From contig CAXXYH010000003.1 in assembly GCA_963677925.2 (NCBI GenBank), positions 992,001 to 1,056,000 of the forward strand: a stretch of DNA of 64,000 bases. Direction: 5' to 3'. The DNA is from Spirochaetia bacterium. Lineage in GTDB: Bacteria > Spirochaetota > Spirochaetia > UBA9216. Numbering within the stretch: position 1 is the stretch's first letter; every line of letters starts with the position of its first letter. This document shows positions 11,678-58,243 of this stretch, one piece after another. Under the pieces are notes generated by a model. It did not search any database, had not been told where the DNA came from, and was given only the letters and a program-made list of their open reading frames with translations. Position numbers and translations under genes: made by a program.

Positions 11678-11692
11678 AAGGCGGAATAATCA

Positions 11693-12442: not shown

Positions 12443-12896
12443 AACTATACTCCTTCATTGCGGCGGCCTTATCAGCAATACAGACAACTAAAGCTTCTGC
12501 TGTAACTGGGGGCATAGGGGTAAGCGGAAACATATGCCGAAGAATAATATCCTTTTCAACCCTGTTAATACTGAAATATCCTGAAGCATTCCGCAGCGCA
12601 ACCATAGGGTGCCGAAAGCCGTGAAAGGGCGGGCATCCTTGATGCCAGTCATACAGATAAAAATCATGAAGCAGTGCCCCTCTGATCAGAGAAACCCGAT
12701 CAACACTGATTTTTGCGGTAATATCAAAGGCAATCTTTGCTACCTTCAGGCTGTGTGAATGACAGCTTATTGTATCATGATGCATATAATCTGCAGTCTG
12801 AAGAAAGAGCCTGTGCTCGAGTATTTCAAGGATCGACTGCTCTTCAAAAAACAACGCAGGTAATGATTTTTGTAATTCCTGGTTTCCCGCTACCAT
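12381..12896 (-). CDS. HD-domain phosphohydrolase family protein
   Basis: HSLKVA, LLHDFYLYDWH, HGFRHP, ILRHMFP, ADK. Confidence 0.85.
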   Translation of the reverse strand: MVAGNQELQKSLPALFFEEQSILEILEHRLFLQTADYMHHDTISCHSHSLKVAKIAFDITAKISVDRVSLIRGALLHDFYLYDWHQGCPPFHGFRHPMVALRNASGYFSINRVEKDIILRHMFPLTPMPPVTAEALVVCIADKAAAMKEYSSIWQGKLWQTLSRRRNRRPL

Positions 12897-14020: not shown

Positions 14021-14024
14021 ACTC

Positions 14025-14051
14025 TTAGACTAATTTAATCTAAAAGTCTAA
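14025..14051. promoter_or_regulatory. Inverted repeat just upstream of tetR, likely autoregulatory operator
   Basis: TTAGACT-N13-AGTCTAA, 4 nt from the tetR start codon. Confidence 0.5.
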
Positions 14052-14066
14052 ATAAGTAAAGTAAAA

Positions 14067-16448: not shown

Positions 16449-16499
16449 ACTATATATTAATCAGTAATTTTATTGAGTTGTCAACTTTTTTACTTTTTT

Positions 16500-41496: not shown

Positions 41497-43554
41497 ATGA
41501 AAACCAGTGTAATCGGGAAACTTTTCAGCGGAATGAAGATCTCTACCAAGATCATCCTCAGCAATATATTCTTTCTTATTCCGATGGGAATTATGCTTTT
41601 TATCAGTCTTACCGGAATCAATTACGACATAAGATTCTCAAGCCTTGAGCTTTACGGAAATGAGTATCAGCAGCCGCTTGAGTCGCTGCTTCAGAATATT
41701 CAGGACCACAGAATATACTCATCCGACAGCGGTTTACAAAACAGGCTCTCAGATCTTGAAAGAAAAATAGACTCCGGATTCAATAAACTGGAAGAGGTTC
41801 AGGAAAAACGCGGCGAAGATCTTCAGTTTACCTCCGATGGACTTAGAATACGCAACAGGGAACAGCTTGTCCCTGCCCTTCTGAAAACCAGATGGAATGA
41901 TATAAAGCGATCAGGAAGCAGTGCAGATTATGAATCGCTTGTTTCAGATATACGAGAAATGATTACACATTCAGGTGATACTTCAAACCTTATCCTTGAC
42001 CCGGACCTCGACAGCTACTACCTGATGGATTTAACTCTTCTTGTTCTTCCTCAGACACAGGACAGACTTGGAGAAATACTTGCTTACGGATATGAGCTTC
42101 TGAAAGATATGGAGGCCGGCGGCATAAAAGCACTCCCTGCTTCTGACAAACTTAAATTTTACGTTTACGCAAGAATGCTTGAGGAATCCGACTACAGCAG
42201 GATACTCGGAAGCACAAATACGGCGCTTAACGAAGATCAGAACTTTTACGGTACCTATGAACCCATGCAGTCAACAATACCTTCAGCATTTGAAGCCTAC
42301 AAGGTTCCGACTCTTGAGTTTATAGGCATACTCTATGATCTCGGTACATCTGATGAGATCAATTATTCCTCATCAGAGTTTCTCGATTCCGGAGAGACAG
42401 CCCGGAATCAGAGCTTTGCCTACTGGGATGATACTGTACGGATTCTGAACGATCTTCTTGAAATCAGAATTGACAGTTACCGCAGCACTTTTATTAAATA
42501 TCTGATTGCAGCAATTGCAACCATACTCTGCGCATTCCTGATCTTCCTTGCAATCAGAAAAAACATTCTTTCTTCAATAAGTTCTCTTCAGGCGGGTTTC
42601 AGGCAGGCATCTGAAAACGACCTGACAACAAGAATAGATGTTTACGGAAGGGACGAGATAGCGCTTTGCTCTAATGACTTTAATGATCTTGTAACAAAAT
42701 TTTCAGATCTGATGAATAAACTCCAGAATATGACGGCTATACTTACCGAGTCGGTTCAGAACCTGAACGTCACTTCGCAGGAGGTTTTTGCTACATCAAA
42801 TGAACAGGCTGCCGCTGTCAAGGAAATAGTAACCACAATGGAAGATTCCGACAGCATGTCAAAGTCGGTAGCCACAAGTATTGCGGAGATTTCTGCACTT
42901 GCCTCGGGAACCAACGAATCGGTGAGAAGCGGCTTTGAACTTATCACGACCATCCTTGAGAAAATGAATGAGATTCAGCTCTCCAACGGCCAGACAATAA
43001 AAGGAATAAAATTCCTTTCGGAGAAAATTGAGAATATCTGGGAAATAGTTAACCTTATCAACGGAATCGCCGACCAGACAAAGATAATTGCCTTTAATGC
43101 CGAACTTGAAGCCTCATCTGCCGGAGAAGCCGGAAAGAGTTTTCAGCTTGTTGCTACCGAAATCAGAAGGCTTGCGGACAGTACGGTTTCATCGACTTCA
43201 GAGATAAAAAACAGGATAAACGAAATCCAGCGCTCCTCCGATGCACTTATTGTTTCTTCAGAAGACGGTACAAGAAAGATAGCAGAAGGCAATGATTTGA
43301 CAGGCCGTATGAACAGCGTATTTGAAGGGATACTTTCATCAACCGAAAAGACCTCTACTTCTACAGACTCCATCTCTATCTCAATTAACCAGCAGGTCTC
43401 ATCTTTCGAGCAGATACTGCTTACACTCAGGCAGATTTCAGAGGGAATAGACAACTTTGTTGTAGCAACAAAGGCAAGTGCCACATCTGCCGAAACTCTT
43501 AAGGGCATGGCACAGGAACTTGACAGCAGAATAGAAATGTATAATGTCAATTAA
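41497..43554 (+). CDS. Methyl-accepting chemotaxis protein (same signalling subtype as the Che-operon MCP)
   Basis: TM, helical sensor (SNLILDPDLDSYYLMD), TM-HAMP; tip IADQTKIIAFNAELEASSAGEAGKSFQLVATEIRRLAD. Confidence 0.92.
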   Translation: MKTSVIGKLFSGMKISTKIILSNIFFLIPMGIMLFISLTGINYDIRFSSLELYGNEYQQPLESLLQNIQDHRIYSSDSGLQNRLSDLERKIDSGFNKLEEVQEKRGEDLQFTSDGLRIRNREQLVPALLKTRWNDIKRSGSSADYESLVSDIREMITHSGDTSNLILDPDLDSYYLMDLTLLVLPQTQDRLGEILAYGYELLKDMEAGGIKALPASDKLKFYVYARMLEESDYSRILGSTNTALNEDQNFYGTYEPMQSTIPSAFEAYKVPTLEFIGILYDLGTSDEINYSSSEFLDSGETARNQSFAYWDDTVRILNDLLEIRIDSYRSTFIKYLIAAIATILCAFLIFLAIRKNILSSISSLQAGFRQASENDLTTRIDVYGRDEIALCSNDFNDLVTKFSDLMNKLQNMTAILTESVQNLNVTSQEVFATSNEQAAAVKEIVTTMEDSDSMSKSVATSIAEISALASGTNESVRSGFELITTILEKMNEIQLSNGQTIKGIKFLSEKIENIWEIVNLINGIADQTKIIAFNAELEASSAGEAGKSFQLVATEIRRLADSTVSSTSEIKNRINEIQRSSDALIVSSEDGTRKIAEGNDLTGRMNSVFEGILSSTEKTSTSTDSISISINQQVSSFEQILLTLRQISEGIDNFVVATKASATSAETLKGMAQELDSRIEMYNVN

Positions 43555-43602: not shown

Positions 43603-45363
43603 TTATTTAAAATCAAGAGTTGCCGCTCCGTCCCAGTATTCGGGCGGAGATGCAATGTATTCTATGCATCGTTCCAGAAACTGTGACGTCGGAAAATCAT
43701 CCGGTAAGAGTTTCAATGCATTTTCCAGATAATCTTTTGCAGTATACCAGTTCCCTATCAGGTACATTTTTATTCCGTTTTCATAGAACCTGAACCACTC
43801 CTCTGAAAAGTTCTCAGGTTTGATCTCAAGAGAAAAGATTCTGGTCGGTTCAGTTTTACCCTTCACTCTGGCAATATCAACAAGTCTTGCAGTAAAATCA
43901 AGATGCAGACTGTTTTTTAAATTTTCTGAAACAAGTATGGGTGTACGGTAATGCTTTGTGAGACTTTCAAGTCTTGCGGCAAGATTAATTGTATCTCCGA
44001 TGGCGGTGAAATCGAATTTATCCGAACAGCCGATATTTCCGATGATAGCCGGCCCCTCGTTCAGGCCGACACCAATAGTAAACCCGCCCTCAGGAAGCTT
44101 CAGTCCGGAGAGATCGATCCGCTCATATTCACGAATCATTTCCATTGCCGCCTGGGCAGCTCTGTCGGCATTATCAATGTAGCTTACTGCAGCACCGAAA
44201 ATTGCGTAGATTGCATCACCAATGAATTTATCTACAGAACCGCCGTATTTTTTAATTATTGCCACCATGTTTGTGAAATGCTGATTCAGGAAATTAACTA
44301 CTGCATCCGGGGGATTATCAGCCATGATTTCATCAAAATGACGTATGTGGGAAAACATTGCTACAATCGTTCTCTTCTCACCGGTCATCAGATCCTTTTC
44401 TGTATCTTTAATCAGAAGATCATTGATTATCTCTTCGGGCAGGAATCTTGAAAATGCCGAGTAGATGGTTTTCGTCTCATTCTGCTTTCTTTCAAATTCC
44501 CGGGCAAGATAGATCATCTTCTTAATCTGATTTGAGATATTATCTGCTTCGAGGCCCTCAACCGGAACCTGCTCTCTCCGGATACAGCCCGCAACATAAT
44601 AACCGCTTAACCCAAGTTCCTCCGAATCAAGATCTATAAACAGTGTAACAAGTTTCTCAAGTTCAGGATCTCCAATACATCCGGCTTTAACTCCGGATCT
44701 GCATTTCTTCTTAAGTTCAATTTTTTGCTCATCATCAATTTCTTCATGAAACTTCAAAATCTCATATTCACTTTCCGACGAACCAACTGAGATATACGAA
44801 AACTCGGTATTGAGAATTAGAGCGATTCTTTCGAGGATATTTTCTATTACGAGTTCCATTCTTTCCGCGGTAACATCAAGACATCCAAGTTCGCTTTCGA
44901 AATACGCATCATACAGCCTGTCAAGGATCAGGCTTCTGGATGATGAGGCTGTAAAACCGGGTTTAAGCAGATCCTGCGGTTTTGGATGATTATCAGGATT
45001 CAAAAAAAATTCCGATTTACGGTGTTCATACATCAGCCTGCTTATCTTCATTCGGTTTTCCTGAGACATATTCTCGCTTCTTGGAACGACAAGGTCTACA
45101 GGTAAAATGGAAGATCGGTAATGCTCACCTATAAAGACCAAGGGTATCTGATTAATCAATTGAAGACTTTTAATTGAAAAAATAATCTCTTCGAGTTCTG
45201 TACTGAAACTGTCTCCCAGAAAAACAACATTCGGAGGAGAATTGTACATTTCATCAAGAAGTCTGTCCTTGGTACGGACTATTTCTATATCATACTCATC
45301 AAAATCAAGAAGTATAATCTTTGAAAGCAGCTCCGAGGCCTCTGCATAAAGTATCTCAGCCAT
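43603..45363 (-). CDS. Class III adenylate cyclase subunit B (pseudo-receiver, cyclase, TPR-like tail); lacks first metal Asp
   Basis: Start moved to ATG 45363 (GGGGGT RBS, 8-nt overlap with upstream gene); FSHIRHF, DKFIGDAI, FTAIGDTINLAARLE, RVKGK, PPEYWDG tail. Confidence 0.88.
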   Translation of the reverse strand: MAEILYAEASELLSKIILLDFDEYDIEIVRTKDRLLDEMYNSPPNVVFLGDSFSTELEEIIFSIKSLQLINQIPLVFIGEHYRSSILPVDLVVPRSENMSQENRMKISRLMYEHRKSEFFLNPDNHPKPQDLLKPGFTASSSRSLILDRLYDAYFESELGCLDVTAERMELVIENILERIALILNTEFSYISVGSSESEYEILKFHEEIDDEQKIELKKKCRSGVKAGCIGDPELEKLVTLFIDLDSEELGLSGYYVAGCIRREQVPVEGLEADNISNQIKKMIYLAREFERKQNETKTIYSAFSRFLPEEIINDLLIKDTEKDLMTGEKRTIVAMFSHIRHFDEIMADNPPDAVVNFLNQHFTNMVAIIKKYGGSVDKFIGDAIYAIFGAAVSYIDNADRAAQAAMEMIREYERIDLSGLKLPEGGFTIGVGLNEGPAIIGNIGCSDKFDFTAIGDTINLAARLESLTKHYRTPILVSENLKNSLHLDFTARLVDIARVKGKTEPTRIFSLEIKPENFSEEWFRFYENGIKMYLIGNWYTAKDYLENALKLLPDDFPTSQFLERCIEYIASPPEYWDGAATLDFK

Positions 45364-46951
45364 ATACACCCCCGTAGGCATCTTTTCCGGGTGTATACAG
45401 ACCGTCAGGCCATTCATCATCGGTATTCCGGTTCAAAACAGTTTCCATGGATACTTCAGTACGTACATCTTCGAATACTGCTTTTGATACAAGAACCGGT
45501 TTCTGATACTGCTTTGTTATTCCCTCAAGCTCCTCGGCAATACCAACGACATCACCTATCACCGTAAAAGCGCTTTTATCCGGAGAACCAATATTTCCAA
45601 TAATTGCTTCTCCATGATGCAGACCGATCCCTATTCTGTAATGATTGCCGGACAGAACAAGACCGGAGCAGTCAACCTTCTCAATATTGTCTATCATTCC
45701 GATTGCAGCCTTTACCGCATTCTGATTGACCTGGCCGGAATCCCCGTTCAAACCGAAAACTGCAACTATGGCATCACCGATAAATTTATCGATGGTTCCT
45801 CCGTATTTTTTTATGATACCTACCATCATATCAAAATGCCGGTTCAGAAAATCAACAACCTGCTGAGCATTATTTTCTTCGGTTATTGTTGTAAATGATC
45901 TTATATCGGAAAACAGGATTGTCACATTCTTTTTCTGCACACTGTTTTTCTCTCTGTTTATTTCCTGGAAAATAAGGTCGGGAATTATCTCTGGAGGAAC
46001 AAATTTCGAAAAGATGTTGAAGATCTTACCCTGCCTGAGAATGTTCTGGCTTGTTTTAAGAGAAAGATAGAGGGGCGGTTCAATTCTGTTTACAAGTTCA
46101 CTGATAAGCTCCGGGTATATTCCTTCAAAATAATTATTACTCAGATGGCCGAAGTGTATTGTCCCCACAGCATTCCCATCCGGGCTTTTAAGTGGCAGAT
46201 AAAAATAAGAACTTAATTTTCTTGTCCCGATTTTCATCCTGCTGAATTCTTCCGAATCTTCGGTGAAGAATACTTCATGAGGATTTTCCATATCCAGCCC
46301 CTTGAAGTGTGCAAAAAAATCGTTCAGACAGAAATTAAGAAAATCCCTGTAATCTTCCCGGAATATCCCCTTGGAAGGCATGACATAGGATTCAACACTC
46401 TGGTTGTTGTTAATCAGTACAACGGATAAATGAATTTTTATTATCTGGTGAAGATACTGAAGAAGGTATTCAACTGTCTTTGATAAAACTTCAGTTTTCC
46501 CTGATACCGATGCAATATCACGCTTTACTGTCTGCTTTTGAAGATTATCAAGCAGGCGTCTGACGCTCTCCCCCTGTGAGAGACTCATTCTGATTGGAAA
46601 GTTCAAACCTGCTGCCCGGTTCCCGGTTTCAGAGTCGGGTATTTCAGACAATGTGTATACGGTTCCGGTTCCTCCGCAGGCGATAAACAGATTGCGCAGC
46701 CGGATATCATCCTTAGCCAGATAGCCGTAAACCGGAAGAGCCTCCGAATCAAGATGTTCCCTGAGAGCACAGATAATATCAAAACTCTCGGGCTGCAGCA
46801 GGTCAAGCAGTAGACAGTCAGGGACATCACGGATGTCTTTGAAACTGATGCTGTTTTTCCAGCTGATGAACCTCAGTTCAGGATTTTCAGGAGAAAGAAT
46901 TAGTTTTGAGAGTGATGCTGAAACGGCAATATCTTTCAATGATCTATCCAA
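45356..46951 (-). CDS. Class III adenylate cyclase subunit A (receiver-like, GAF-like, cyclase); lacks transition-state Asn/Arg
   Basis: TTG start overlapping cheA stop; PDCLLLD receiver-like; FSDIRSFT, DKFIGDAI, FTVIGDVVGIAEELE. Confidence 0.88.
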   Translation of the reverse strand: MDRSLKDIAVSASLSKLILSPENPELRFISWKNSISFKDIRDVPDCLLLDLLQPESFDIICALREHLDSEALPVYGYLAKDDIRLRNLFIACGGTGTVYTLSEIPDSETGNRAAGLNFPIRMSLSQGESVRRLLDNLQKQTVKRDIASVSGKTEVLSKTVEYLLQYLHQIIKIHLSVVLINNNQSVESYVMPSKGIFREDYRDFLNFCLNDFFAHFKGLDMENPHEVFFTEDSEEFSRMKIGTRKLSSYFYLPLKSPDGNAVGTIHFGHLSNNYFEGIYPELISELVNRIEPPLYLSLKTSQNILRQGKIFNIFSKFVPPEIIPDLIFQEINREKNSVQKKNVTILFSDIRSFTTITEENNAQQVVDFLNRHFDMMVGIIKKYGGTIDKFIGDAIVAVFGLNGDSGQVNQNAVKAAIGMIDNIEKVDCSGLVLSGNHYRIGIGLHHGEAIIGNIGSPDKSAFTVIGDVVGIAEELEGITKQYQKPVLVSKAVFEDVRTEVSMETVLNRNTDDEWPDGLYTPGKDAYGGVYG

Positions 46952-49124
46952 TCAGCTCCCGCACCCGTTCGAGCAGGCTGCCCCGGTCAAAATCATTTTT
47001 GTTTATGATTGCATTCCCGCCTGCGGCTTTGACTTTATCTTCGAGTTCGCTTCGCTCATTGGAGCTTATTACGATAACAGGGGTTTTTTTGTATTTCTCC
47101 TGCCTTCTGACATTCTCTATCAGCGTAATACCATCCATTCTGGGCATCTGAACATCGGTGATGATAAGATGAAAGTACTGCTCCTTCATTTTATCAAGAG
47201 CGTCAATACCGTCTACAGCAAGCGAGACATTGAAGTTCTCAAGCTCAAGAATTGATTTTTCTATTTCACGCGTTGATAAAGAGTCATCAACAACAAGAAT
47301 CTGCTTATACTGCTTGTCTTCCGGAGAATACCGTTCCTTGAACTCTATATTTCTTATGCCCTTGAACCTTGATATAAGTTCGGGAACAAACAGAATATTT
47401 ATAATCTCAAAGTTCTCATCAAAAACTATCCCTTGTATAACTTTCAGTTTCGACAGCCGTCCCGGGAGAGGTTTATATATTAACGATGAGAACTGAATTA
47501 CAGAATCAACTGTAATACCGATTATATCTCCGAGAGACTCGACAACAACTACAGAGAGTTTCTCGGATACGGATGTATTCTCTTTTCCAAGAAGGGCTGC
47601 AAGGGGATATACAGGAATTATCATCTCTCGAAGGCGTATGACATTCTTGTTGAGCACTGAAACTATTTCATCTCTTTTGATGATTAAAATTTCCTTCACG
47701 AAAGCAGTTGGAATAAGGAATTTTTTACCCTGAGCCTTAACAAAAAATCCGTCGACAGTAGCAAGGGAAAGAGGCAGTGACATTTCAAACAATGTCCCCT
47801 CACCGGTTTTACTGTCTATGATAATCTTTCCTTTAATTTTCTCAATATTTGTTTTTACAATATCAAGTCCTACCCCTCTGCCTGAAAGGTTGGTTATCTT
47901 CTTTGTGGTGGTAAACCCGGACTGAAAAAGAAAGGAGGAAAGACTTCCGTTATCCATCTTTCGAATCTCGTCCTCCATCTCAGGATTAAGCTCTATTGCC
48001 TTAGCCCGTATAGAATCATAATTTATACCTCGGCCGTCATCCCTTATTCTTATATTTATCCGTCCGCTCTCGGATGTACACTGAATAAGGATGCTTCCCT
48101 GGGAATCCTTGCCGGCTTCAGCCCTTTCCTGCGGACTTTCAATACCGTGATCAACCGCGTTACGGATAAGATGTATGATTGGATCATTAATGTTTTCAAG
48201 GATCGTTTTATCTATCAGCAAATTCGAACCAGTAATCTGAAAATCGATCTCCTTCTCAAGCAGCAGTGAAGTTTCTTCAACCATCTTTTTCAGCGGATTA
48301 AGAACCAGATTAAGAGGCAGCATCTGAAGTCCAAGAATTTCCTCCTGCAGCTCAAAACTGATATGCTCAAGCTGTGCCATTTCATCCGAATAGGTCTTCC
48401 TGATCTTCTGGGTCATCTTGGTCAGTTCCCCGAGTGAATCGGAAACAGGCTCAAGCCCGGGCTGATTGGCTGCAAAGTTTTTTACCTTCGCAAGAACACC
48501 CCGAAGACCTTCTTCAAGTTCGCTTAGAGTCTCATTTTCTCTCTTGAACTGGAACTGCTGTATAATCAGGCTGTTAAGCTGTTTTACTATTTCATCAATT
48601 TTTGTAATCTTAACCCTTATCGATTCATAATTCGACAGAGCTGAAGAGTCTTTCACTGAATCCGGAACAGGGCTGTCGTCAACACCATCCTTTCTGTTCT
48701 GGTTATGATCTCCTTCAAGCTCCTCCACTGTGAAAGCAAGGCCGGACTCCGCTTTTCTGAAGACATTCTGAAGGTTCGTCATTTCAATAGTGTCGGTACC
48801 AAGCGATTTAACCCGGTCCAGACCTTCCTCAAGATACCCGATGGAACTGTAGATCAGCTGAAGGAGATTCCGTGTAAGCGGATACCGCTTTTCCTTGACA
48901 CCCTTGAAAATGTTTTCAAGTTCATGGTTAATGGCTTCAAGATTCCTGAAATCCATCATCCGGGAAGAACCTTTGAGGGTGTGAAGCAGCCTGAGAAGTT
49001 CGGACAATTTCTCGTTGTTGTCCGGTTCCTTTCTCAGGGCAATGATGATATCACCCATGGTGACAATATTCTCTCTTGATTCCACTAAGAAGTTATCAAT
49101 AAATGATTTCTTGTCAATTGCCAT
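46944..49124 (-). CDS. cheA: Hybrid CheA histidine kinase with C-terminal receiver (WspE-like)
   Basis: HPt LHTLKGSS, HLIRNAVDHGIE, DDGRG, SGRGVGLD, CheW domain, receiver VVDDS...ITDVQMPRMDG. Confidence 0.95.
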   Translation of the reverse strand: MAIDKKSFIDNFLVESRENIVTMGDIIIALRKEPDNNEKLSELLRLLHTLKGSSRMMDFRNLEAINHELENIFKGVKEKRYPLTRNLLQLIYSSIGYLEEGLDRVKSLGTDTIEMTNLQNVFRKAESGLAFTVEELEGDHNQNRKDGVDDSPVPDSVKDSSALSNYESIRVKITKIDEIVKQLNSLIIQQFQFKRENETLSELEEGLRGVLAKVKNFAANQPGLEPVSDSLGELTKMTQKIRKTYSDEMAQLEHISFELQEEILGLQMLPLNLVLNPLKKMVEETSLLLEKEIDFQITGSNLLIDKTILENINDPIIHLIRNAVDHGIESPQERAEAGKDSQGSILIQCTSESGRINIRIRDDGRGINYDSIRAKAIELNPEMEDEIRKMDNGSLSSFLFQSGFTTTKKITNLSGRGVGLDIVKTNIEKIKGKIIIDSKTGEGTLFEMSLPLSLATVDGFFVKAQGKKFLIPTAFVKEILIIKRDEIVSVLNKNVIRLREMIIPVYPLAALLGKENTSVSEKLSVVVVESLGDIIGITVDSVIQFSSLIYKPLPGRLSKLKVIQGIVFDENFEIINILFVPELISRFKGIRNIEFKERYSPEDKQYKQILVVDDSLSTREIEKSILELENFNVSLAVDGIDALDKMKEQYFHLIITDVQMPRMDGITLIENVRRQEKYKKTPVIVISSNERSELEDKVKAAGGNAIINKNDFDRGSLLERVRELIG

Positions 49125-50520
49125 ACCTGACTCCCTCTTTCAGATTATCTAATCTAGCCCTGCATATCTCCCTGAAATACTTGGCGTTAAACCCTTCAAG
49201 CAGGAACTGGTAATCTATTCTTTTATCACTTATATAACGATCGATATCCCTTGTCAGAATTCCAAGATGTATCTCTTCGCCCGCGGATGAGGTTCCGCAG
49301 CTGAAAGTAATGTAATATCTTGCCGGCCAGAATGCCGGATTGGCATCAAGCACTTTCTGAAAAGCAGAAAGTGCTGCAGATTTGTCCCCCTTCTGCAGAG
49401 GGATAAACCCGCCGAAAAAGCTGTAAAGACTCTGAGGATGTTCATTGGGTTTCAGCTGTGCAAACAGAACTTCGGCTTTTTTAAGGTTGTTTCTGCCAAG
49501 CTCGGAAAGAATATCAGCAAATTTTTCAGCCGATCTCAAGGCCGGGGAATCATCATCTGTAAAAATAGGGTTGTTAAGAATATTTGTGATAAACAGACAA
49601 ACCTGCTTTTCATCAGGAGGAGCCTGAAGCTCGGCTTTATGGATAACTTTTTTTACCGGCTCAGCAGATATGATATGACTGGGCACCGGCTGAATATTTG
49701 CCGGCTCCATATGAAGAGGATCTTTCTTCCTTAAAAAATAACAGTAGTCACTGGAAATAACTTCAAGCTGGGGATGTGATATGTGTGCAACCTCAGAAGC
49801 CGACAGAATCAGAATTCCTCTGTTTTTTAGCTTCTCGGTAATTTTGTTGATAACCTTCTGTTTATTTTCAAGATTCATATAGATCAGTGTATTCCTGAGA
49901 AAAACACAGTCCATCATGGGAAGATCGGCAAGGCTGTCATTATAAAGATTGATTTCCCGGATATCTATTTTATTCATGACATCTTCTTTAATAGATAGTT
50001 CTTCAGAGCCTTCAGATCGGGATGAAACCTCATCAAGCAGTTCATGAAAAAGCTTCCCGTCGGTTCGGAGTGCTCCCTTACGGAATATTCCTTTCCGGAA
50101 TTTATTCAAAATATGAGCGTTAATATCACTCGCATAAACCTTAAACGGCAGCCTGAGCTTTCCGTTCATCAGTGCATATAATGAAACAGGTTCTTCACCT
50201 GATGAACAGCTTGCACTCCAAATATTAATTGAGCCGCCTTCATTGTTCTTTTCAGGTATAAATACATCCCTGAGATATTTGAATTGTTTTTCTTCTCTGA
50301 AAAAATAGGTTTCATTTATAGTAACATGATCAAGTAAGCGTTCGTATTCTTCCTTTACTGTCTTAAGGATATTGAGATATACCTGTGCAGATCCGTTGAA
50401 ATCCTTTAACCGGTCATCAAGGTAGCCGTTGAAACTCATCATGTTTACAGGCTTCAGGTCAATCCCTGTGTGATATTCAATAAACCTTATTATTTCTGCG
50501 TATGAACTCATAGGCCGCAC
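49114..50520 (-). CDS. cheR: CheR methyltransferase with C-terminal TPR-like region (WspC-like)
   Basis: TINETYFFRE, IWSASCSSGEEP, ASDIN, FLRNTLIYM; helical C-terminal extension. Confidence 0.92.
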   Translation of the reverse strand: MRPMSSYAEIIRFIEYHTGIDLKPVNMMSFNGYLDDRLKDFNGSAQVYLNILKTVKEEYERLLDHVTINETYFFREEKQFKYLRDVFIPEKNNEGGSINIWSASCSSGEEPVSLYALMNGKLRLPFKVYASDINAHILNKFRKGIFRKGALRTDGKLFHELLDEVSSRSEGSEELSIKEDVMNKIDIREINLYNDSLADLPMMDCVFLRNTLIYMNLENKQKVINKITEKLKNRGILILSASEVAHISHPQLEVISSDYCYFLRKKDPLHMEPANIQPVPSHIISAEPVKKVIHKAELQAPPDEKQVCLFITNILNNPIFTDDDSPALRSAEKFADILSELGRNNLKKAEVLFAQLKPNEHPQSLYSFFGGFIPLQKGDKSAALSAFQKVLDANPAFWPARYYITFSCGTSSAGEEIHLGILTRDIDRYISDKRIDYQFLLEGFNAKYFREICRARLDNLKEGVRYGN

Positions 50521-51563
50521 ATTTCTTTTAATTCGGATGATATTTTCTGCAGCGGCAGAATTTTTGTTGCTGCATTAAGTTCCGCGGCGGCCTTGGGCAT
50601 TCCGTATATCAGCGATGTTTCACGGTCCTGAACAAGGGTTCGGCCTCCGGACTGTAAAATCTTAAGACAGCCGTCAGCTCCGTCCCGGCCCATTCCCGTA
50701 AGCAGAACACCTATTACGCCGCTGCCGTGACTGGCTGCCGCCGAGAAAAACATTTTGTCAACCGAAGGCTTCTGGTTCTGCAGTTTAGGAGAATCATCCC
50801 AGTATGCCTTCTGTTTCGTACAGCAGAGATGATAGGTTGACGGAGCCACAAGTACAGTACCAGGCTGAATTGTGTCATTTTCCTCTGAGATTCTGACGGT
50901 AAGCTCGGTGCCCTCATCCAGCCAGCGTGCGTAGCCCTCATCATAGCCCTCTTCTATATGCTGGCTCAGCAGTATGCCGACAGGGAAATTCCCCGGCAGT
51001 CCTTTTAAGACCTCACGTACAGCCGACGGTCCTCCGGTAGAGGCCCCTATTACAACGAGGGTGCAGGCCTTCCCTCCTGATAAACCTGGAGACGGTTTTA
51101 CGGACAAAGATGAAAAATCTCCTGCGGGGGGGGTAAGTTCCGTCTTCTCAATAATCATTTTTTTATTAAGTCTGAAACTTCCGAACCGTCCGGTATTTTC
51201 AAGAACTGTTTTGAAGGAAGCAGCAAACTCAGGGTCATTCATTTTACTTACTGCCGGCTTCGGAATAACTTCAAGTGCGCCCTTATTAAGGGCATTGAAT
51301 CCGACCTCGGAAATATCTTCACTTGTAAGAATCACTATCGGCAGAGGAGTGTTCTGCATAATTATCTCTGTGGCTGTAATGCCGTCCATAAGCGGCATAT
51401 TGACATCCATCAGAAGAAGGTCGGGCTTGAGTGATTTAACAAGCTCAATGGCCTGCTGACCGTTACTGCCTTCTCCTACTACTTCAAAACCGCCTAGTGA
51501 CTCAAGCAGCTGCTTTATAATTGAGCGTACCAGGTATGAATCATCAACCAATACTATTTTCAT
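50508..51563 (-). CDS. cheB: CheB methylesterase / response regulator
   Basis: Start moved to ATG 51563; receiver VDDS..LMDVNMP..KP; GASTGGP, QH, LLTGMGRDG, YGMP. Confidence 0.95.
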   Translation of the reverse strand: MKIVLVDDSYLVRSIIKQLLESLGGFEVVGEGSNGQQAIELVKSLKPDLLLMDVNMPLMDGITATEIIMQNTPLPIVILTSEDISEVGFNALNKGALEVIPKPAVSKMNDPEFAASFKTVLENTGRFGSFRLNKKMIIEKTELTPPAGDFSSLSVKPSPGLSGGKACTLVVIGASTGGPSAVREVLKGLPGNFPVGILLSQHIEEGYDEGYARWLDEGTELTVRISEENDTIQPGTVLVAPSTYHLCCTKQKAYWDDSPKLQNQKPSVDKMFFSAAASHGSGVIGVLLTGMGRDGADGCLKILQSGGRTLVQDRETSLIYGMPKAAAELNAATKILPLQKISSELKEMCGL

Positions 51564-52098
51564 TGTTTTTTCCTGTAAGAATATTCCTGATATTTGTTTC
51601 AATATCTATGAAGAACTGGATACGTGATTCATTGCTGAAACGGCAGCCAAGCAGTCCGTTTCGAAGAAGAAGACCATCAAGTCCGGGGGGATTAACATAA
51701 AATTCGTTCAAAGACAGTGTCTTTATCTCGACCTGGCTTGAAACAATCAGACCGATACTGTCTATATGGACATCCTCATGCAGATCGGTAATCTTCATTA
51801 CCCGCTGAATTGTTTCATTGTTATAATCCGCTATATTCACTATGAGGCAGAGTTTGAGCCGTGAAGGATTTTTACATTTATAATTGTCCATCAGGAACTG
51901 ATCAAAATCACAGAGGACAAGATTTCTGCTGTTATAATCAGTGTATTTATCAAAATAGTCAGGACAGCCTGAATGAACTTCATAAAGTTCATTCAGGGAG
52001 GAGCTGCCTGTAAACTGGCTGCGATGGATTAGAAAATCAATTTCACGGTACTGCAGAACCAGAAAATCAGCACTGCTTCCATCGGAATTAATAGGCAC
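51544..52098 (-). CDS. Divergent CheW-like coupling protein
   Basis: Lies between cheW and cheB; weak CheW pattern (FLVL, IGLIVSS, IQFFIDIE). Confidence 0.55.
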   Translation of the reverse strand: MPINSDGSSADFLVLQYREIDFLIHRSQFTGSSSLNELYEVHSGCPDYFDKYTDYNSRNLVLCDFDQFLMDNYKCKNPSRLKLCLIVNIADYNNETIQRVMKITDLHEDVHIDSIGLIVSSQVEIKTLSLNEFYVNPPGLDGLLLRNGLLGCRFSNESRIQFFIDIETNIRNILTGKNNENSIG

Positions 52099-52627
52099 TG
52101 ATATCGCCCTCCATCTTCTTTATCAGTGTGTTAAGATCAAATACAAAGATTTCTTCTGTATCAGTCGGGTTTATAGTGCCTATAAAATAGTCCTCATCCG
52201 GAATGGTGGATGTTATCCTGTGCAGTTCACTTTCCGGCAGATTTACAATCTCGACTACATCCGAAATAAGAATGGCAAGCTGATCATCCGCCCTGTTTAA
52301 AATCAGAAAGGTTGAAGAATCAAGCTTCTCTCCCTCCAGTATCACAGTCATGTCAATAACAGTATAGGGTTCACCATGCCGGTTAATAAAACCGCTGATA
52401 TACGGAGGTGTAAAGGGGACATAGAATACCGGCGTATTTCCGATTATCTCCTTTACTTCATCTGCAAACAATGCAAATTTTTTATCCTTGATTCCAATAA
52501 TCATATACTTGTTGTATTTCTGCGAGATTATAGCGGCTTTACCGTCTTTTTCGCTTCTAATCCGGCTTATCCTGTTCAGGATTTCCCTGGTCTCATTCGT
52601 CCGGCTGCTTTCTTCATTCTGCATCAT
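52088..52627 (-). CDS. cheW: CheW coupling protein
   Basis: FAL..DEVKEI, VPFTPPYISGFINRHGEPYTVID, AILISDV. Confidence 0.9.
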   Translation of the reverse strand: MMQNEESSRTNETREILNRISRIRSEKDGKAAIISQKYNKYMIIGIKDKKFALFADEVKEIIGNTPVFYVPFTPPYISGFINRHGEPYTVIDMTVILEGEKLDSSTFLILNRADDQLAILISDVVEIVNLPESELHRITSTIPDEDYFIGTINPTDTEEIFVFDLNTLIKKMEGDISAY

Positions 52628-52646
52628 TCACCTCCAGTCAGGGTTC

Positions 52647-53054
52647 TCAATAAAAATCTTCACTGAAAAGTCCGCGCCGTGCCTTCTTTTCACCATCACT
52701 GAACCCAATCTTGGCAATAAGAACCGCTACAGCCTTTTCAAGCTCGAGTGTTTTTCCAGTAAATTCCATTCCATAGTAATGATGTCCGGTCTTTCTATCC
52801 TGTTTATTCCATCTTGTTTCTACTGTTATCGGAGGCAGAGGCACACTTATAAATCCTTCAAAGGGTATCTTTATCTCTATCGTTCCCTTAAAGCCGGAAT
52901 CGATAGGCTGCTCAGCCAGAAGAAGGACTCCATTGGAACTGATGTCTGCCAGCTTACCGATCATATTCCCGGTTTCGGTATCCTCTATATCAAGATAGTA
53001 AACAAGATTTCTTCTTTTTATTTCGCGCACTGTATCACCTTTATCTGCATGCAA
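52647..53054 (-). CDS. Single-domain PilZ protein (c-di-GMP receptor)
   Basis: RxxxR (REIKR) and DxSxxG (DISSNG); TRW...YGMEF. Confidence 0.85.
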   Translation of the reverse strand: MHADKGDTVREIKRRNLVYYLDIEDTETGNMIGKLADISSNGVLLLAEQPIDSGFKGTIEIKIPFEGFISVPLPPITVETRWNKQDRKTGHHYYGMEFTGKTLELEKAVAVLIAKIGFSDGEKKARRGLFSEDFY

Positions 53055-53056
53055 TT

Positions 53057-55051
53057 TTATTCGATGTCACTTACATTATACTTATCAACCAGTTCCTTAA
53101 GTCCGTCGGCCATGGCTTTCAGATTTTCGGTTGATGCTGATGTTGACCTGGTGGAAACAACAAAATTATCTATACCGCCTGATATCTGCCTTAATGTCAG
53201 AAGAATCTGCTCAAACGCAGAAACCTGCTGATTGATAGATACGTTTATCTGCTGTGCCGATTCCGCTGATATTTCCGCAGAGCTTAAAACATCCTCGAAT
53301 ATTTTTCGGAGAGCACCTGAAAGCTCACCGCCTTCCCTGATATGTTCAGTTCCCTCTTCAGAAGCAATAATGAGGTTATCTGAAGAATGCTGAATTTCGT
53401 TAATCTTTCCCTTTATTTCACTTGTGGAAGACATCGTAATATCAGCAAGACGTCTGATTTCTGTTGCAACTATCTGAAAATTCTTTCCTGCTTCACCTGC
53501 GGCAGAAGCCTCCAGTTCCGCATTGAATGCAATAATTTTAGTCTGATCGGCAATCCCGTTAATTATATTTACAATCTCCCAGATGCTGTCTATCTTTTCG
53601 CTTAGTGCTTTTATTCCGTCGATAGTCTCCGAGTTTGATTTTTTAATTTCATCCATCTTTTCCAGGGTGCCCTGAACTGTTGAAAAGCCTGTCTGCACGA
53701 CCTCTCTTGTATTATCAGAAATTCTGGTCACCTCTTCGATCCTGTTTGCTATATTCTTTGACAGCTGATCAGAATCCTCCATGGTCGTAACTATTTCTTT
53801 TACTGCTGCAGCCTGCTCATTTGATGTTGCAGTAATCTGCTGGGATGATACCGAGAGATTCTGAACCGATTCAAAAAGCTCTGCAGAGGTAGATTTTATC
53901 CTTCTGAGCATATCCTCAACTGTATCAATCAAAGCGTTAAAATGAATTGATACTGTTCCTATTTCATCATGGCTTTTCTGCTCTACCCGTCCGGTCAAAT
54001 CGCCGGCGGCAATATTCTCAGTAAGTATTTTAATCTGTATCAGAGGCTTCAGGATACGTTTGAGAATAAGGGCAATAAGGTAATTGGCAAAAATAAAGGC
54101 GACAAAAAGAATAATTACACTGATAATTTTTATTTTATTCAGAAGACCGAACATATCGCTTGTATATGCCTTGGTAACAATGATTAGATCCAGGTCGGGA
54201 TAGGCTCTGAAAATTGCGATAGAATCTGAATCAATTTTATCACCAAGCATTCTGTAGGTTATCGAACCGTTCTGCTTCTTGATGATATCCCTTATAAAAT
54301 AGCTTCCATCTTCAGCCTGGTTATCATAAAGGCTTTCACCCTTAAGTGTTGGATGAATAAGAAGTTTGCCCTCATTATTCATGATATACGGATATCCGTT
54401 TTCACCTATTTTTATGCTCAGAATCCTTTTTTCAAGCTCGCCCAGATCAACCAGTTTATGGAATTCCGATTTATAAGATGAGGCCCAAATTATAAGATCC
54501 CAGGGTTTAAAATATGCCATACCGCCCGCTTTTGAGCGTGGTTTATCTTCATTCTTGTTCTGCCACTCATATTCCAGATACCCTTCCTTCATTGAAGTAG
54601 CTCTTTTCATAAAATCATAACCGCTTGCATCCGCCCCTTCCGAAAGAGGATGTATTACAAGAACACCCTTTCCGTCCACTCCGGCAAGATACCCGGTTTC
54701 ACCGATCTTTCCGATATCAGGATCAAGGATGATATTTTTTACATTCTGCCATGCCCGGGCTTCTGTCTGCCGTCCGGCTTTAAATTGATCATATTCATGT
54801 TCCACCAGCCGTTTTACCATTTCAGCTGTGCTGATAAGATAATTCTGAACGCTGGCATCCACATAGCTGTCGGTAAGCTGGTAAATCAATTCCGTTGTAT
54901 TTGAAAGCTCGTTCCGGTACTGCTTATCAAGACCGGATGTAAGATTTACAAAAATTCCAACCCCAAGCCCTGCCAGAACTATAACGAAAAGAACTCCGAA
55001 CACAGCCTGGATTTTTACACTGACACTTGAAAGTAATCTCCTAATATCCAT
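53057..55051 (-). CDS. Methyl-accepting chemotaxis protein with tandem Cache sensor; first gene of the Che operon
   Basis: TM-Cache-Cache-TM-HAMP; tip IADQTKIIAFNAELEASAAGEAGKNFQIVATEIRRLAD. Confidence 0.93.
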   Translation of the reverse strand: MDIRRLLSSVSVKIQAVFGVLFVIVLAGLGVGIFVNLTSGLDKQYRNELSNTTELIYQLTDSYVDASVQNYLISTAEMVKRLVEHEYDQFKAGRQTEARAWQNVKNIILDPDIGKIGETGYLAGVDGKGVLVIHPLSEGADASGYDFMKRATSMKEGYLEYEWQNKNEDKPRSKAGGMAYFKPWDLIIWASSYKSEFHKLVDLGELEKRILSIKIGENGYPYIMNNEGKLLIHPTLKGESLYDNQAEDGSYFIRDIIKKQNGSITYRMLGDKIDSDSIAIFRAYPDLDLIIVTKAYTSDMFGLLNKIKIISVIILFVAFIFANYLIALILKRILKPLIQIKILTENIAAGDLTGRVEQKSHDEIGTVSIHFNALIDTVEDMLRRIKSTSAELFESVQNLSVSSQQITATSNEQAAAVKEIVTTMEDSDQLSKNIANRIEEVTRISDNTREVVQTGFSTVQGTLEKMDEIKKSNSETIDGIKALSEKIDSIWEIVNIINGIADQTKIIAFNAELEASAAGEAGKNFQIVATEIRRLADITMSSTSEIKGKINEIQHSSDNLIIASEEGTEHIREGGELSGALRKIFEDVLSSAEISAESAQQINVSINQQVSAFEQILLTLRQISGGIDNFVVSTRSTSASTENLKAMADGLKELVDKYNVSDIE

Positions 55052-55459: not shown

Positions 55460-56170
55460 CTACTCGCTCCAGGTTCCGCTTCTGGATTCTCCTGTTAATG
55501 AAGGAATTTCAAGCTTCATGCCGGGAATTATCAAATCTGGATTGTCGGGATCCGGCATTGAAGATTTATTCTTTTCGTAGATAAGCCTCCAGAGAGTCGG
55601 ATCTCCGTATATGAAGCTGTAGCCTGCAATATTCCACAAACAGTCTGCATTTCCGGGAAGCAGCCTAACAGTATAGTATCGCGGTTTTGATACTGTTTTT
55701 TCAGGTTCAGCCTCCGGCGCTGCTCCGCTTCCGATATAATGGATGACTTTCATGACCTCAAGAGCCTGTTTTGAGCTGTCAATACTTCCTTCATAGTCCT
55801 CGGTTTTATACTGCTCAACAGCAGTATTATAAAGATTCTTTCCTTCCGCAAACTCTGCAGGGAAGTTCTTTTCAGCCTGCCAGAGTGAGGCAGTCTGTAT
55901 TCTGTCTTTTGTCAGTACAATATAGCTGTTTGCCCTGTACTGAAGCAGCTTTTTCTGTACATATTCATCGGCTAATTCAGCGTAATGACGCGACTCTTCC
56001 GCAAGCTGTCTGGCAAGATCGTAATCGCCCTCATCGAAGGCTGCTTCACTCTGCTTTTTCAGCTGCACCGAGCGGTTATAATCCGGATTATCCCGCAGGG
56101 ACTGGGAAAACAAGGTTTCCCCTGAAATTAAAACCAGTATCGTAAGAAGAAAAATTATCTTTTTGATCAT
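55460..56170 (-). CDS. Secreted helical protein with C-terminal LysM domain
   Basis: Signal peptide; YTVR...DCLWNIAG..IYGDP.LW.LIY..N...NPDLIIPGMKLEIP. Confidence 0.88.
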   Translation of the reverse strand: MIKKIIFLLTILVLISGETLFSQSLRDNPDYNRSVQLKKQSEAAFDEGDYDLARQLAEESRHYAELADEYVQKKLLQYRANSYIVLTKDRIQTASLWQAEKNFPAEFAEGKNLYNTAVEQYKTEDYEGSIDSSKQALEVMKVIHYIGSGAAPEAEPEKTVSKPRYYTVRLLPGNADCLWNIAGYSFIYGDPTLWRLIYEKNKSSMPDPDNPDLIIPGMKLEIPSLTGESRSGTWSE

Positions 56171-56631
56171 TCATCTCCTCCGGTTTCCTCAAGAGCATCC
56201 TCACTGTTTTTTTCTGTTTTGGATATAGCATCATCTGCTGCCTTCATTGCAGCAAGGGCTTCTTCCCTCTTTTTGAGAGCAATATCGGCCGATTCATCAA
56301 ACTTCTCAGAGGCAAGACTGTACAGTTCAAAAGCATCGGAATAATTTTCATCGGCAAAGGCATCATCGGCATGTTCATAGTACTCCATAGCCTTGATGTA
56401 TTCATCAGGTGCAGCTTTTGGAGCCTTTAGTTCAACGGCCTTCTCCTGCGAGGTTCCAGCCAGTTTTTTTGCATCTTCGGCCTCGGTTTTTCCTGCTTTT
56501 ACGGTAACGACAGGAGTTTCAGACCGCCCGGATTCCGGGTCAGGACTTATCGTTTCTTCCGGCGTAGTAGCACATGAAAATGAAATAAGTAGAATTAATG
56601 TAATTAAAATTGGAAATAATAACTTACGCAT
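56167..56631 (-). CDS. Helical lipoprotein, cotranscribed with the LysM gene
   Basis: Lipobox SFSC; Ala-rich helices; 4-nt overlap with LysM gene. Confidence 0.78.
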   Translation of the reverse strand: MRKLLFPILITLILLISFSCATTPEETISPDPESGRSETPVVTVKAGKTEAEDAKKLAGTSQEKAVELKAPKAAPDEYIKAMEYYEHADDAFADENYSDAFELYSLASEKFDESADIALKKREEALAAMKAADDAISKTEKNSEDALEETGGDE

Positions 56632-56734
56632 ATTTTACCTTCTCCAGAAAGAATAATATCTCAAATTCCGCATAATTCATATACTAACTGATATTTCATT
56701 GCAATTGAGAACTGTTTCACTATATTATCCTTGT

Positions 56735-58243
56735 ATGAGGCTTAATTACTACCTTAGCATCATGATAATCATTGTTTCATCCCTGATGCTCTTTATTGGC
56801 ATCTGGTGTGCAAGAAAAAGAGAAGTAAAAGGTGCACGGACTTTTTCATTACTGATACTTGCAATGGTTATTCATTCCTTCGGTTATGCCTTTGAGCTTA
56901 TTGGCAGCAGTCTGAGCCGGATGTTTCTCTGTATCAGAATTGAGTATATAGGAGTTGCATTCTACCCCTATCTTCTGCTGCTGTTTACAAGCGAATACAC
57001 TGATGAAAGAAAGATAGCAAACAGGGTGGTCAGGGCAATAATTCTATCCCTCAATATCGCCACATTCTTTATTGTCCAGACAAACAGCGCACACCTTCTT
57101 TACTATCGATCAGTAACTGCCGGCAGTCCATATGGATTTCCGCTTCTTATTCTTGAACCCGGTCCATGGTATGCAGTACAAACGCTGCTGCTGTTTTCTA
57201 CCGCCCTGTACAGTGTAATTATATTCATCTACCGGATGAGGCGGCTCGACAGAAATGCACGTAAGCGCGCCGGGTTTCTTTTGATAGGAATTCTCATTCC
57301 CTGTATTGCAACAGTTCTCGCGATTACAGGTGTACTCCCAAGTCATATTGATTTTTCACCAATCAGCTATTTTCTGCTTGTTATTAATTATATAACCGGG
57401 CTGTTCAGGTACAGGCTGTTTCTGGTCAGTGAACTGTCGCACGAAATGATTCTTGATACTATCGAGGAAGCTGTCATAGTAATTTCGGATGACGGAATCG
57501 TGATAAATACAAATTCAGCTGTTACGGAGTATTTTCCGCCTCTTAACAATATATCAGTAGGTGATCGGCTGGCTGATTATCCGGAACTCTCAGGAATTCT
57601 TGAAAAAGAAAGGACTGATGAGATCAGCATTGGAGAAGACTTCTACCAGCTGAAAGTAATCCCCTATCAGAAACAGCATTGTACATTATACGTATTCAGC
57701 AATATTACACAGCGTACCGCAGCCAGGATCAAACTTGAAAAACTGGCGGTTACAGACCCGCTTACAGGGGTCTATAATAGAAGATACTTTATGACTGAAT
57801 GTGAAAAGGAAATAAAGGAAGCTCTGCGTTATCATTATCCTGTTTCAGCGATAATGCTTGATATTGATGATTTTAAAATTATTAATGACCAATACGGACA
57901 TAAATCAGGTGATGAGGCACTATGCCGGCTGACGGAAATATGCCTGAACCAACTGAGAGAAATTGATATTCTTGCCAGATACGGGGGTGAGGAATTTGTG
58001 ATTATGCTGCCTCATACTGAATGCCGTGAAGCCGTTGAAATAGCGGAAAGACTAAGGGAAGCCGTTGCAGGCGATAATGCCACGAATTTCACGATCAGTC
58101 TGGGAGTAAGCTGTCTCAGCGACAGTGAGATAAGTGATGTAGATCATCTTATAAACAACTCTGACACAGCCATGTATTTCTCAAAAAGAACCGGAAAAAA
58201 CAAAACCTCAGCCTTCAGCAATTTACCGCAATCTGCAGAATAA
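56735..58243 (+). CDS. 7TM (HisKA_7TM-like) PAS diguanylate cyclase
   Basis: Seven hydrophobic helices, PAS-like, DPLTGVYNRR, DIDDFK, RxxD I-site (REID), GGEEF. Confidence 0.92.
   Translation: MRLNYYLSIMIIIVSSLMLFIGIWCARKREVKGARTFSLLILAMVIHSFGYAFELIGSSLSRMFLCIRIEYIGVAFYPYLLLLFTSEYTDERKIANRVVRAIILSLNIATFFIVQTNSAHLLYYRSVTAGSPYGFPLLILEPGPWYAVQTLLLFSTALYSVIIFIYRMRRLDRNARKRAGFLLIGILIPCIATVLAITGVLPSHIDFSPISYFLLVINYITGLFRYRLFLVSELSHEMILDTIEEAVIVISDDGIVINTNSAVTEYFPPLNNISVGDRLADYPELSGILEKERTDEISIGEDFYQLKVIPYQKQHCTLYVFSNITQRTAARIKLEKLAVTDPLTGVYNRRYFMTECEKEIKEALRYHYPVSAIMLDIDDFKIINDQYGHKSGDEALCRLTEICLNQLREIDILARYGGEEFVIMLPHTECREAVEIAERLREAVAGDNATNFTISLGVSCLSDSEISDVDHLINNSDTAMYFSKRTGKNKTSAFSNLPQSAE

Follow-up and report, generated by a model that had tools for sequence, protein, structure and literature searches.

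A Wsp-like chemosensory operon of a Spirochaetia bacterium with a predicted cyclic AMP output through two complementary cyclase subunits

Chemotaxis-like systems that serve functions other than motility are common in genomes, and few of their outputs are understood. The model case is the Wsp system of Pseudomonas, in which WspA-F are joined by the receiver-GGDEF output protein WspR and the messenger is cyclic di-GMP (c-di-GMP). A second Pseudomonas system, Pil-Chp, raises cyclic AMP (cAMP) through the class III cyclase CyaB, so far as the accessible part of its literature describes it; cyaB is reportedly encoded elsewhere and controlled indirectly, and Pil-Chp is said also to steer type IV pili. 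Here we describe an operon from a Spirochaetia bacterium (GenBank assembly GCA_963677925.2) in which the cyclase genes follow directly upon cheA. It lies at positions 43603-55051 of a 64,000-nucleotide stretch of DNA, called the window throughout, which is C3:992001-1056000 of a 5.04-Mb, four-contig genome. Its nine minus-strand genes run in the order MCP-PilZ-CheW-184-aa ORF-CheB-CheR-CheA-CycA-CycB (open reading frame (ORF) listing and Pfam), the content and order reported by an earlier interpretation made from the letters of the DNA alone (hereafter the sequence-only reading). From the domain content, the synteny, the complementary pattern of catalytic residues and its conservation, and the single origin of the pair on a tree, all of which are observed, we infer heterodimer formation, a cAMP product and control by CheA: the locus likely encodes an alternative-function, Wsp-like chemosensory pathway whose output would be cAMP, made by a CycA/CycB heterodimer with a single active site.

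The resemblance to Wsp lies in the presence of a chemoreceptor (MCP), two small coupling-type genes (the second only a candidate), a CheR with an extension, CheB, a CheA-receiver hybrid and no CheY, and in a messenger-making enzyme that comes last in the operon and, in relatives, carries a canonical N-terminal receiver. It departs from Wsp in that the output is a class III cyclase with a GAF-like region rather than a GGDEF protein, in that the gene order differs and a PilZ gene is included, and in that the output consists of two complementary subunits with degenerate receivers. Both cyclases have the CyaB of Pil-Chp (3r5g, P. aeruginosa) among their sequence matches; the departure from that system is that here the end of cheA is overlapped by the cyclase genes and the operon is free of pilus genes. 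Features of alternative cellular function (ACF) systems are present, with MCP, CheW, CheA, CheB and CheR in one gene run and a hybrid CheA without P2. A CheR fused to tetratricopeptide repeats (CheR-TPR) is linked to ACF systems in the accessible part of PMC3447774; a receiver on CheA is common in the F3, F5, ACF and Tfp classes, according to the accessible part of PMC10782961, and is not exclusive to ACF.

The sequence-only reading knew of no characterised system with such an architecture, and none was found in our literature search, neither a characterised chemosensory system whose output is a neighbouring cyclase nor a natural bacterial heterodimeric class III cyclase, most subscription journals lying outside that search. 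Heterodimers go unmentioned in PMC2447327, and the accessible parts of PMC8396549 and PMC10622942 held nothing further on mechanism. The claim of novelty must be narrowed in one respect, since a receiver joined to a mononucleotidyl cyclase in a cheR-TPR cluster had already been catalogued in 2012, as one row of Table S2, for the delta proteobacterium NaphS2 (accessible part of PMC3447774). That cluster resembles ours in combining CheR-TPR with a receiver-cyclase regulator, a likeness of description only, and differs in being of the single, unsplit form and in being a table row without analysis of the cyclase. The locus combines known kinds, an ACF-type chemosensory system and a class III cyclase.

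The case for a two-subunit enzyme rests in the catalytic domains. In bacterial class III cyclases each chain carries all the catalytic residues and the chains form two-site homodimers, while in the mammalian enzyme C1 supplies the metal-binding Asp pair and C2 the substrate-binding and transition-state residues, giving one active site and one pseudo-site (accessible part of PMC4174876). CycA and CycB both match Pfam Guanylate_cyc (75.5 and 77.7 bits, cut-off 21.9), and their catalytic positions were anchored on solved enzymes through phmmer alignments. CycA keeps the metal-binding residues D349 and D393 together with Lys389 and Thr463 (orthologue alignment), and Gly470 and Glu474 replace its transition-state Asn and Arg, seen as N to G and R to E in the phmmer alignment to bPAC. 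CycB has His358 at the first metal Asp, where phmmer aligns it with D156 of OaPAC, and keeps Lys398, Asp402, Thr472, Asn479 and Arg483. Neither chain holds all six catalytic residues, CycA being without Asn and Arg and CycB without the first metal Asp. Paired head to tail, they complete one site on paper (the Asp pair of CycA with the Lys, Thr, Asn and Arg of CycB) and leave a second site defective on both sides. Given these complementary residues, an obligate CycA/CycB heterodimer with one active site is predicted, and the two proteins are probably complementary halves of one enzyme, 'C1-like' and 'C2-like', rather than parallel outputs. The split involves three residues only, CycA also keeping Lys and Thr and CycB the second Asp.

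The same division of labour, with the metal Asp pair on one chain and the substrate and transition-state residues on the other, is found in mammalian C1/C2, in the alpha and beta chains of soluble guanylate cyclase (sGC) and in chytrid RGC/NeoR, and the chytrid rhodopsin cyclases act as heterodimers (accessible parts of PMC8815786 and PMC10622942). The weaker PDB matches of CycA include C1 and sGC alpha chains, and among those of CycB are C2 regions. What sets the present pair apart is an independent bacterial duplication within one family of receiver (REC)-GAF-cyclases, and separate genes rather than a fusion.

As to the product, class IIIb adenylate cyclases are recognised by a Lys/Thr pair; specificity for ATP goes with Lys and either Thr or Asp, that for GTP with Glu and either Cys or Gly. 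CycA and CycB both have the substrate-specifying Lys and Thr, as do all other tabulated members of the family (42 in total), and on the strength of this pair ATP is the predicted substrate, in keeping with the adenylate cyclase assignment of the sequence-only reading. The alternative, that the product is another cyclic nucleotide (cGMP or a pyrimidine cNMP), draws on the inclusion of guanylate cyclases in class III and on the presence of Cya2 among the structural matches; we consider it very improbable, given the Lys and Thr of all 42 members and best sequence matches by phmmer that are the adenylate cyclases OaPAC, bPAC, CyaB and CyaC. The same four are among the fold matches, and a fold search with the whole CycB model returned cyclases only. 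The 16 matches to cNMP-binding domains in the genome indicate that receivers of cAMP are present in the cell.

In most relatives the gene after cheA encodes a single protein of ~615 aa, a REC-GAF-class III cyclase. Pfam finds Response_reg in 8/8 and GAF_2 in 3/8 of these single-cyclase orthologues. Among 18 single cyclases the receiver set D-D-D-T-K is full in 13, degenerate in four and cut at the start in one; all six catalytic residues (D, K, D, T, N, R) are present in every one of the 18, and the GAF-like motif and the C-terminal tail are retained. Of 401 genomes sampled from the class, 38 contain a member of the family (E <= 1e-45).

That cheA should lie beside the cyclases in relatives was the synteny check put forward by the sequence-only reading, and it was passed strongly. 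For a first set, 41 relatives were searched with CycA and all proteins of the operon were then mapped by tblastn onto larger regions; the order MCP-cheW-(small ORF)-cheB-cheR-cheA-cyclase was found in 8/8 of these, which represent this genus, other members of its family and five further families. A second set came from a pattern scan with the N-terminal (receiver plus GAF-like) alignment over one genome per species, which yielded 80 loci: cheA is directly upstream on the same strand in 18/18 cyclase-bearing loci (L022-L036, L038, L043 and L055), five of which are the same contigs as genomes of the relatives search. The same placement is seen in 9/9 paired loci (L127-L135), and in the wider search of 401 genomes the 3' end of cheA lies directly upstream of the cyclase in 21/21 further short loci. 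Adjacency by chance, conceivable in a genome with ten class III cyclase domains, is ruled out by these counts. About four cheA homologues lie elsewhere in the genome, at no more than 35% identity.

The receiver-GAF module is also found beyond the spirochaetes. It follows cheA (or cheB) directly in other phyla, with other effectors (L037 at 10476-12578, L040 at 10418-15648, L049-L052, L057 and L058): a Candidatus Vecturithrix contig joins REC-GAF to a histidine-kinase ATPase domain (HATPase); an Anaerolineaceae contig has a separate REC-GAF protein followed by a 1354-aa protein with two cyclase-domain stretches and AAA_16; and on Actinomycetota contigs a homologous receiver protein lies between cheB and cheR, with no cyclase match.

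The split form follows cheA in 12 genomes, namely this one, G008 (another genus), the divergent metagenome-assembled genome (MAG) of L055, and nine from two further families, and in all of them the complementary pattern is held. The CycA orthologues keep both Asp residues, Lys and Thr in 12/12 and the Asn and the Arg in 0/12 each; a Glu stands at the Arg position in 9/12, the GAF-like motif is kept in 12/12 and the C-terminal tail is lost in 12/12. In 12/12 CycB orthologues His replaces the first metal Asp and K, D, T, N and R are intact; their GAF-like motif is degenerate, and their TPR-like tail, which ends in WxGxxxLxFK, is kept. The two genes overlap or are separated by no more than 11 nt in the window and in 8/9 of the paired loci L127-L135; the ninth, L134, was excluded from this count as its CycB start is ambiguous, its high-GC ORF having a spurious N-terminal extension.

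On a tree of 45 rows (18 single cyclases, 12 CycA, 12 CycB and three paralogues as outgroup; IQ-TREE, LG+G4, with L103_out omitted for its 4.6-long branch), CycA and CycB each form a clade (SH-aLRT 98 and 99), the two clades are sisters (96) that arise from among the single cyclases, and the branching inside one mirrors that inside the other. This fits one duplication followed by joint inheritance of cycA and cycB; the duplication would have taken place in an ancestor common to this genome and at least 11 others, with the copies dividing the work between them.

The operon of this genome (G000) is closest to those of G008 (CheA 82% and CycA 65% identical) and of G155, a member of another family (67% for CheA). 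In the congener G001 the operon is of the single-cyclase form and CheA is 51% identical. Since the closest operons belong to another genus and another family while a congener has the single form, the operon variant has probably been transferred horizontally between lineages. Two loci labelled uncultured Desulfobacteraceae, L032 and L043, carry the single-cyclase operon, and the tree nests them among the spirochaetes; taken with the NaphS2 case of PMC3447774, they point to transfer between phyla, rather than only mis-binning.

Several observations weigh against the proposed pathway and call for caution, the first of them at its centre. The sequence-only reading had both cyclases bearing receivers, and this could not be upheld for the present copy, in which neither CycA nor CycB has a Pfam or NCBIfam match to Response_reg and the key residues are lost from both, although the orthologues of relatives match in 8/8. 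CycA keeps the phospho-acceptor Asp (D50) only, its acidic pair, Thr and Lys being gone, and CycB reads E, A, G, -, R at the five receiver columns, with Gly69 at the phospho-acceptor. Receivers so degenerate cast doubt on simple phosphotransfer of the Wsp type in this genome, and they do not explain how CheA is linked to the enzyme. The second coupling protein (the 184-aa ORF) and the TPR identity of the CheR extension are both weakly supported. The tree came from a quick search in which 12 rows have odd composition and L055_cycA sits on a long branch. A model of the complex cannot tell a heterodimer from homodimers in a family known to dimerise, and His can bind metals, so that a CycB homodimer might keep some activity.

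Descent of the N-termini from receivers is suggested by alignments and models, more clearly for CycA than for CycB. Residues 40-327 of CycA align with the receiver-GAF N-termini of the orthologues by hhalign at 99.9% (E 5.9e-31), and the model of the CycA N-terminus (mean pLDDT 75.8, range 56-83), the input alignment of which contained canonical receiver orthologues and may have biased it, matches a REC-GAF kinase (6oap, E 2.9e-6), the receiver of YycF (3f6p, E 5e-4) and the GAF domain of DosS (2y79, E 1.2e-3). The CycB N-terminus reaches only a weak 64.8% probability against the orthologue profile, over residues 251-317; in its AF2 model residues 20-132 follow a beta-alpha pattern (pLDDT ~60-80), while the pLDDT falls below 50 at 196-310 and reaches 85-97 over the cyclase and tail, and its receiver/GAF ancestry rests on position, full-length alignment and this medium-confidence model. 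In the early-branching pairs (L055, L134 and L135) the CycB receiver is near-canonical.

Degenerate receivers in both proteins, together with a GAF-like motif kept in 12/12 CycA, could also mean that the cyclases are neighbours of the chemosensory genes and not their output, uncoupled in this lineage by loss of receiver residues and answering to the GAF-like region or some other input, with CheA signalling to its own receiver and CheB. We regard this as quite improbable: the pair comes directly after cheA in 12/12 pair genomes, with frames that overlap or abut here; the early-branching CycB proteins have the near-canonical receiver just described; and for each of CheA, CycA and CycB in this genome the nearest counterparts are the proteins of G008 and G155.

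A different alternative concerns the enzyme itself, in which a CycB homodimer would do the catalysis, with His358 and Asp402 binding the metal, perhaps with an altered metal preference, and CycA would be a catalytically dead partner, regulatory or inhibitory, that titrates CycB. CycB keeps 5/6 catalytic residues and its replacement is always His (12/12), and CycA is without two residues and the C-terminal tail. Structural modelling does little to separate the possibilities: CycA 290-531 with CycB 300-605 gave a complex score of 0.69, the best of three controls reaching 0.00, and that mark was reached by 116/157 solved complexes and 2/215 mismatched pairs. Contacts agree between the three runs to at least 86%, partner pLDDT is at least 82, and the KFIGD and TxIGD segments of both chains lie in the interface; this pass may reflect likeness to solved class III dimers and not a preference for the heterodimer. 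All 12 CycA proteins keep both metal Asp residues, Lys and Thr over a long divergence, which is hard to account for in a dead subunit, and CycA retains exactly those residues that the complementary model needs, the roles of the Asp pair being as given in the accessible part of PMC4174876; we consider an active CycB homodimer unlikely.

The proposed heterodimer would then work as follows. A double-Cache chemoreceptor, probably with a second, convergent MCP, would control the CheA-receiver hybrid kinase through CheW and a second small conserved protein, with CheR and CheB providing methylation-based adaptation and the PilZ protein, its motifs intact, probably passing c-di-GMP status to the array. 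In the single-cyclase relatives phosphate would move from CheA~P to the receiver of the cyclase and give an active homodimer, by the logic of Wsp. Here CycA, which keeps the GAF-like sensor motif, would contribute the two metal Asp residues, and CycB, which keeps the C-terminal TPR-like tail, the Lys/Thr and Asn/Arg; made from overlapping genes, they would pair head to tail into a heterodimer in which one ATP site is competent and the other a dead pseudo-site, as in mammalian C1/C2. How CheA reaches this enzyme is a guess: the pseudo-receivers may dock on the phosphorylated receiver of CheA, or Asp50 of CycA may retain some phosphorylation. The likely history leads from a homodimer with phosphorylatable receivers, through a heterodimer with one good receiver on CycB, to the two pseudo-receivers of this clade.

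The dead site may be more than a relic. As its replaced residues are themselves conserved (the CycB His in 12/12, the CycA Glu in 9/12), it can be read as a conserved regulatory pocket, with the pseudo-receivers of both subunits docking on the phosphorylated CheA receiver and a methylation-adapting array, which PilZ would tune with c-di-GMP, directly gating a single-site cyclase. We offer this only tentatively and think it unlikely; if true, bacteria would have arrived anew at a regulated enzyme of the C1/C2 type, here under a chemotaxis-type receptor array.

The genes themselves are set out in Table 1. Judged from the packing of the predicted genes, the nine are likely co-transcribed. The TTG start of cycA and the stop of cheA overlap by 8 nt, as the sequence-only reading had it in placing the beginning of cycA within the cheA stop region, and the internal ATG of cycB, which is preceded by a GGGGG stretch and coincides with the start position of the orthologues, likewise gives an 8-nt overlap with the cycA stop. 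Matches to promoter-like and terminator-like patterns were near expectation (37 against 28.2, sd 5.8, and 14 against 11.6, sd 3.9, in shuffles) and gave no usable signal.

Table 1. Genes of the chemosensory operon and the convergent receptor gene, in window coordinates
Feature	Position	Strand	Description
MCP	53057-55051	-	664 aa, first gene of operon; periplasmic double-Cache sensor, HAMP, MCP signalling domain
PilZ protein	52647-53054	-	135 aa, single-domain; Pfam PilZ 23.3 bits, cut-off 22.5
CheW	52088-52627	-	179 aa; Pfam CheW 57.2 bits, E 1.8e-15
Conserved ORF	51544-52098	-	184 aa, in the position of a second coupling protein
CheB	50508-51602	-	N-terminal receiver and methylesterase
CheR	49114-50520	-	Pfam CheR E 2.9e-35, residues 69-251, followed by a C-terminal extension of ~215 aa
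CheA-receiver hybrid	46944-49124	-	726 aa; Hpt 9-106, HATPase_c 314-453, CheW 459-586, REC 609-721
CycA	45356-46951	-	531 aa; degenerate receiver-like N-terminus, GAF-like middle, class III cyclase; no C-terminal tail
CycB	43603-45420	-	605 aa as longest ORF, 586 aa from the probable start at 45363; strongly degenerate receiver-like and GAF-like regions, class III cyclase, conserved TPR-like C-terminal tail ending WDGxxxLDFK
Second MCP	41497-43554	+	685 aa; HAMP and MCPsignal (Pfam); convergent on operon end

The kinase and adaptation genes bear out most of what had been read from the letters, and NCBIfam is concordant with Pfam for CheA, CheB, CheR and MCP. The hybrid CheA without an obvious P2 stands, with four Pfam domains and no CheY-binding P2 domain at E <= 0.01; its translation has the HxxKG motif and the canonical receiver residues DD/D/S/K. 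So does the absence of stand-alone CheY, CheX and CheZ: Pfam finds no stand-alone receiver in the operon, a query with the CheA receiver across the window returned CheB as the only receiver besides that of CheA itself, a scan of the remaining ORFs of the window gave no receiver-only ORF, and by these three means no CheY, CheX or CheZ was found in operon or window. CheB matches CheB_methylest (E 3.9e-55) and Response_reg (E 2.1e-23) in Pfam and the CheB subfamily in NCBIfam (E 2.4e-95). Two labels are less well supported. CheR does carry a C-terminal extension, the TPR identity of which is not borne out by Pfam, the C-terminal 228 aa giving no better than weak matches to TPR_19, TPR_8 and TPR_Slam (E 0.04-0.18); the extension is kept in most relatives and absent in G342, G360, G169 and G114, where matches end near query residue 266. 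These four genomes hold the distant paired operons L132-L135, in which the CheA match starts at residue ~40-68 or is only 32-35% identical.

Likewise, of the two CheW proteins proposed, one is secure, with orthologues 40-62% identical in relatives, and the other, the 184-aa ORF, is CheW-like only as a lead. It has no Pfam or NCBIfam match, its profile found nothing in the PDB, and its likeness to CheW is weak by BLASTP (E 0.045), by hhalign to the CheW alignment (8.4% probability) and through its orthologues, 1/10 of which match Pfam CheW (E 0.075); the language-model Atlas places CheW clusters first (0.92, 176 shared features, 26/30 matches), and the ORF is kept at its position in relatives.

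The operon MCP (Pfam Cache_3-Cache_2 E 2.2e-37, dCache_2 E 1.5e-30, HAMP E 1.7e-10, MCPsignal E 8.3e-26) has an orthologue in the same operon position in relatives. The MCP of G007 (L014, 18096-20000) is 79% identical to it, the remaining G007 operon being 33-50% identical, which suggests that the receptor gene has been exchanged between operon variants. The second MCP, whose signalling domain is ~54% identical to the orthologues of the operon MCP, probably serves this system as an additional receptor; in L127-L131, too, cycB is followed directly by a convergent MCP, which in L127 is 70% identical.

The motifs of PilZ-type c-di-GMP receptors are RxxxR and (D/N)xSxxG, and the translation of the operon PilZ has both (REIKR and DISSNG). 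A PilZ homologue lies within or beside the operon in many related loci, heading it in L127-L131 and standing nearby in many single-cyclase loci, and the protein is likely a c-di-GMP-binding adaptor of the receptor array, as predicted from these motifs and this placement. The nearest described parallel is MapZ, a single-domain PilZ protein that binds CheR1 in P. aeruginosa and ties c-di-GMP to receptor methylation (accessible part of PMC6370697); the present protein is likewise single-domain with both motifs, a likeness of description and not of sequence, and differs in that its gene lies inside the operon. Elsewhere in the window, a GGDEF-EAL protein stands beside a dCache-HisKA_2 kinase at 14067-18263 (-), and a 7TM-GGDEF protein is encoded at 56699-58243 (+), immediately upstream of the operon region but on the other strand. 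They are possible sources of c-di-GMP for the operon PilZ.

Other neighbours are of less certain relevance. Upstream of the operon, at 55460-56631 (-), are two ORFs of 236 and 154 aa with weak DUF1771 and DUF4398 matches, which have no clear family and are not kept beside the operon in relatives. At 62732-63976 (-) an ORF whose N-terminus extends beyond the end of the window carries ATP-synt_ab_C (residues 68-193) followed by PTS_EIIA_2 (275-406) and adjoins the ATP synthase gamma and beta genes; it may be a fusion of the alpha subunit of an F-type ATP synthase with a regulatory domain of the PTS EIIA type.

Taken as a whole, the placing of the cyclases in the output slot of a Wsp-like system is supported by gene order and synteny, and the chemoreceptor-to-cAMP interpretation of the sequence-only reading survives in outline; it did not hold for the receivers of this copy, and the complementary split had escaped it. 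In a conserved family of spirochaetes, represented in 38/401 genomes, an adapting receptor array appears to set cAMP through an enzyme encoded beside cheA, which opens to direct test what systems of this kind control. The complementary split into two subunits is the defining architecture of animal adenylate and guanylate cyclases, and the presence of single and split forms within one family provides a natural experiment on the evolution of one-site cyclases and of pseudo-receivers.

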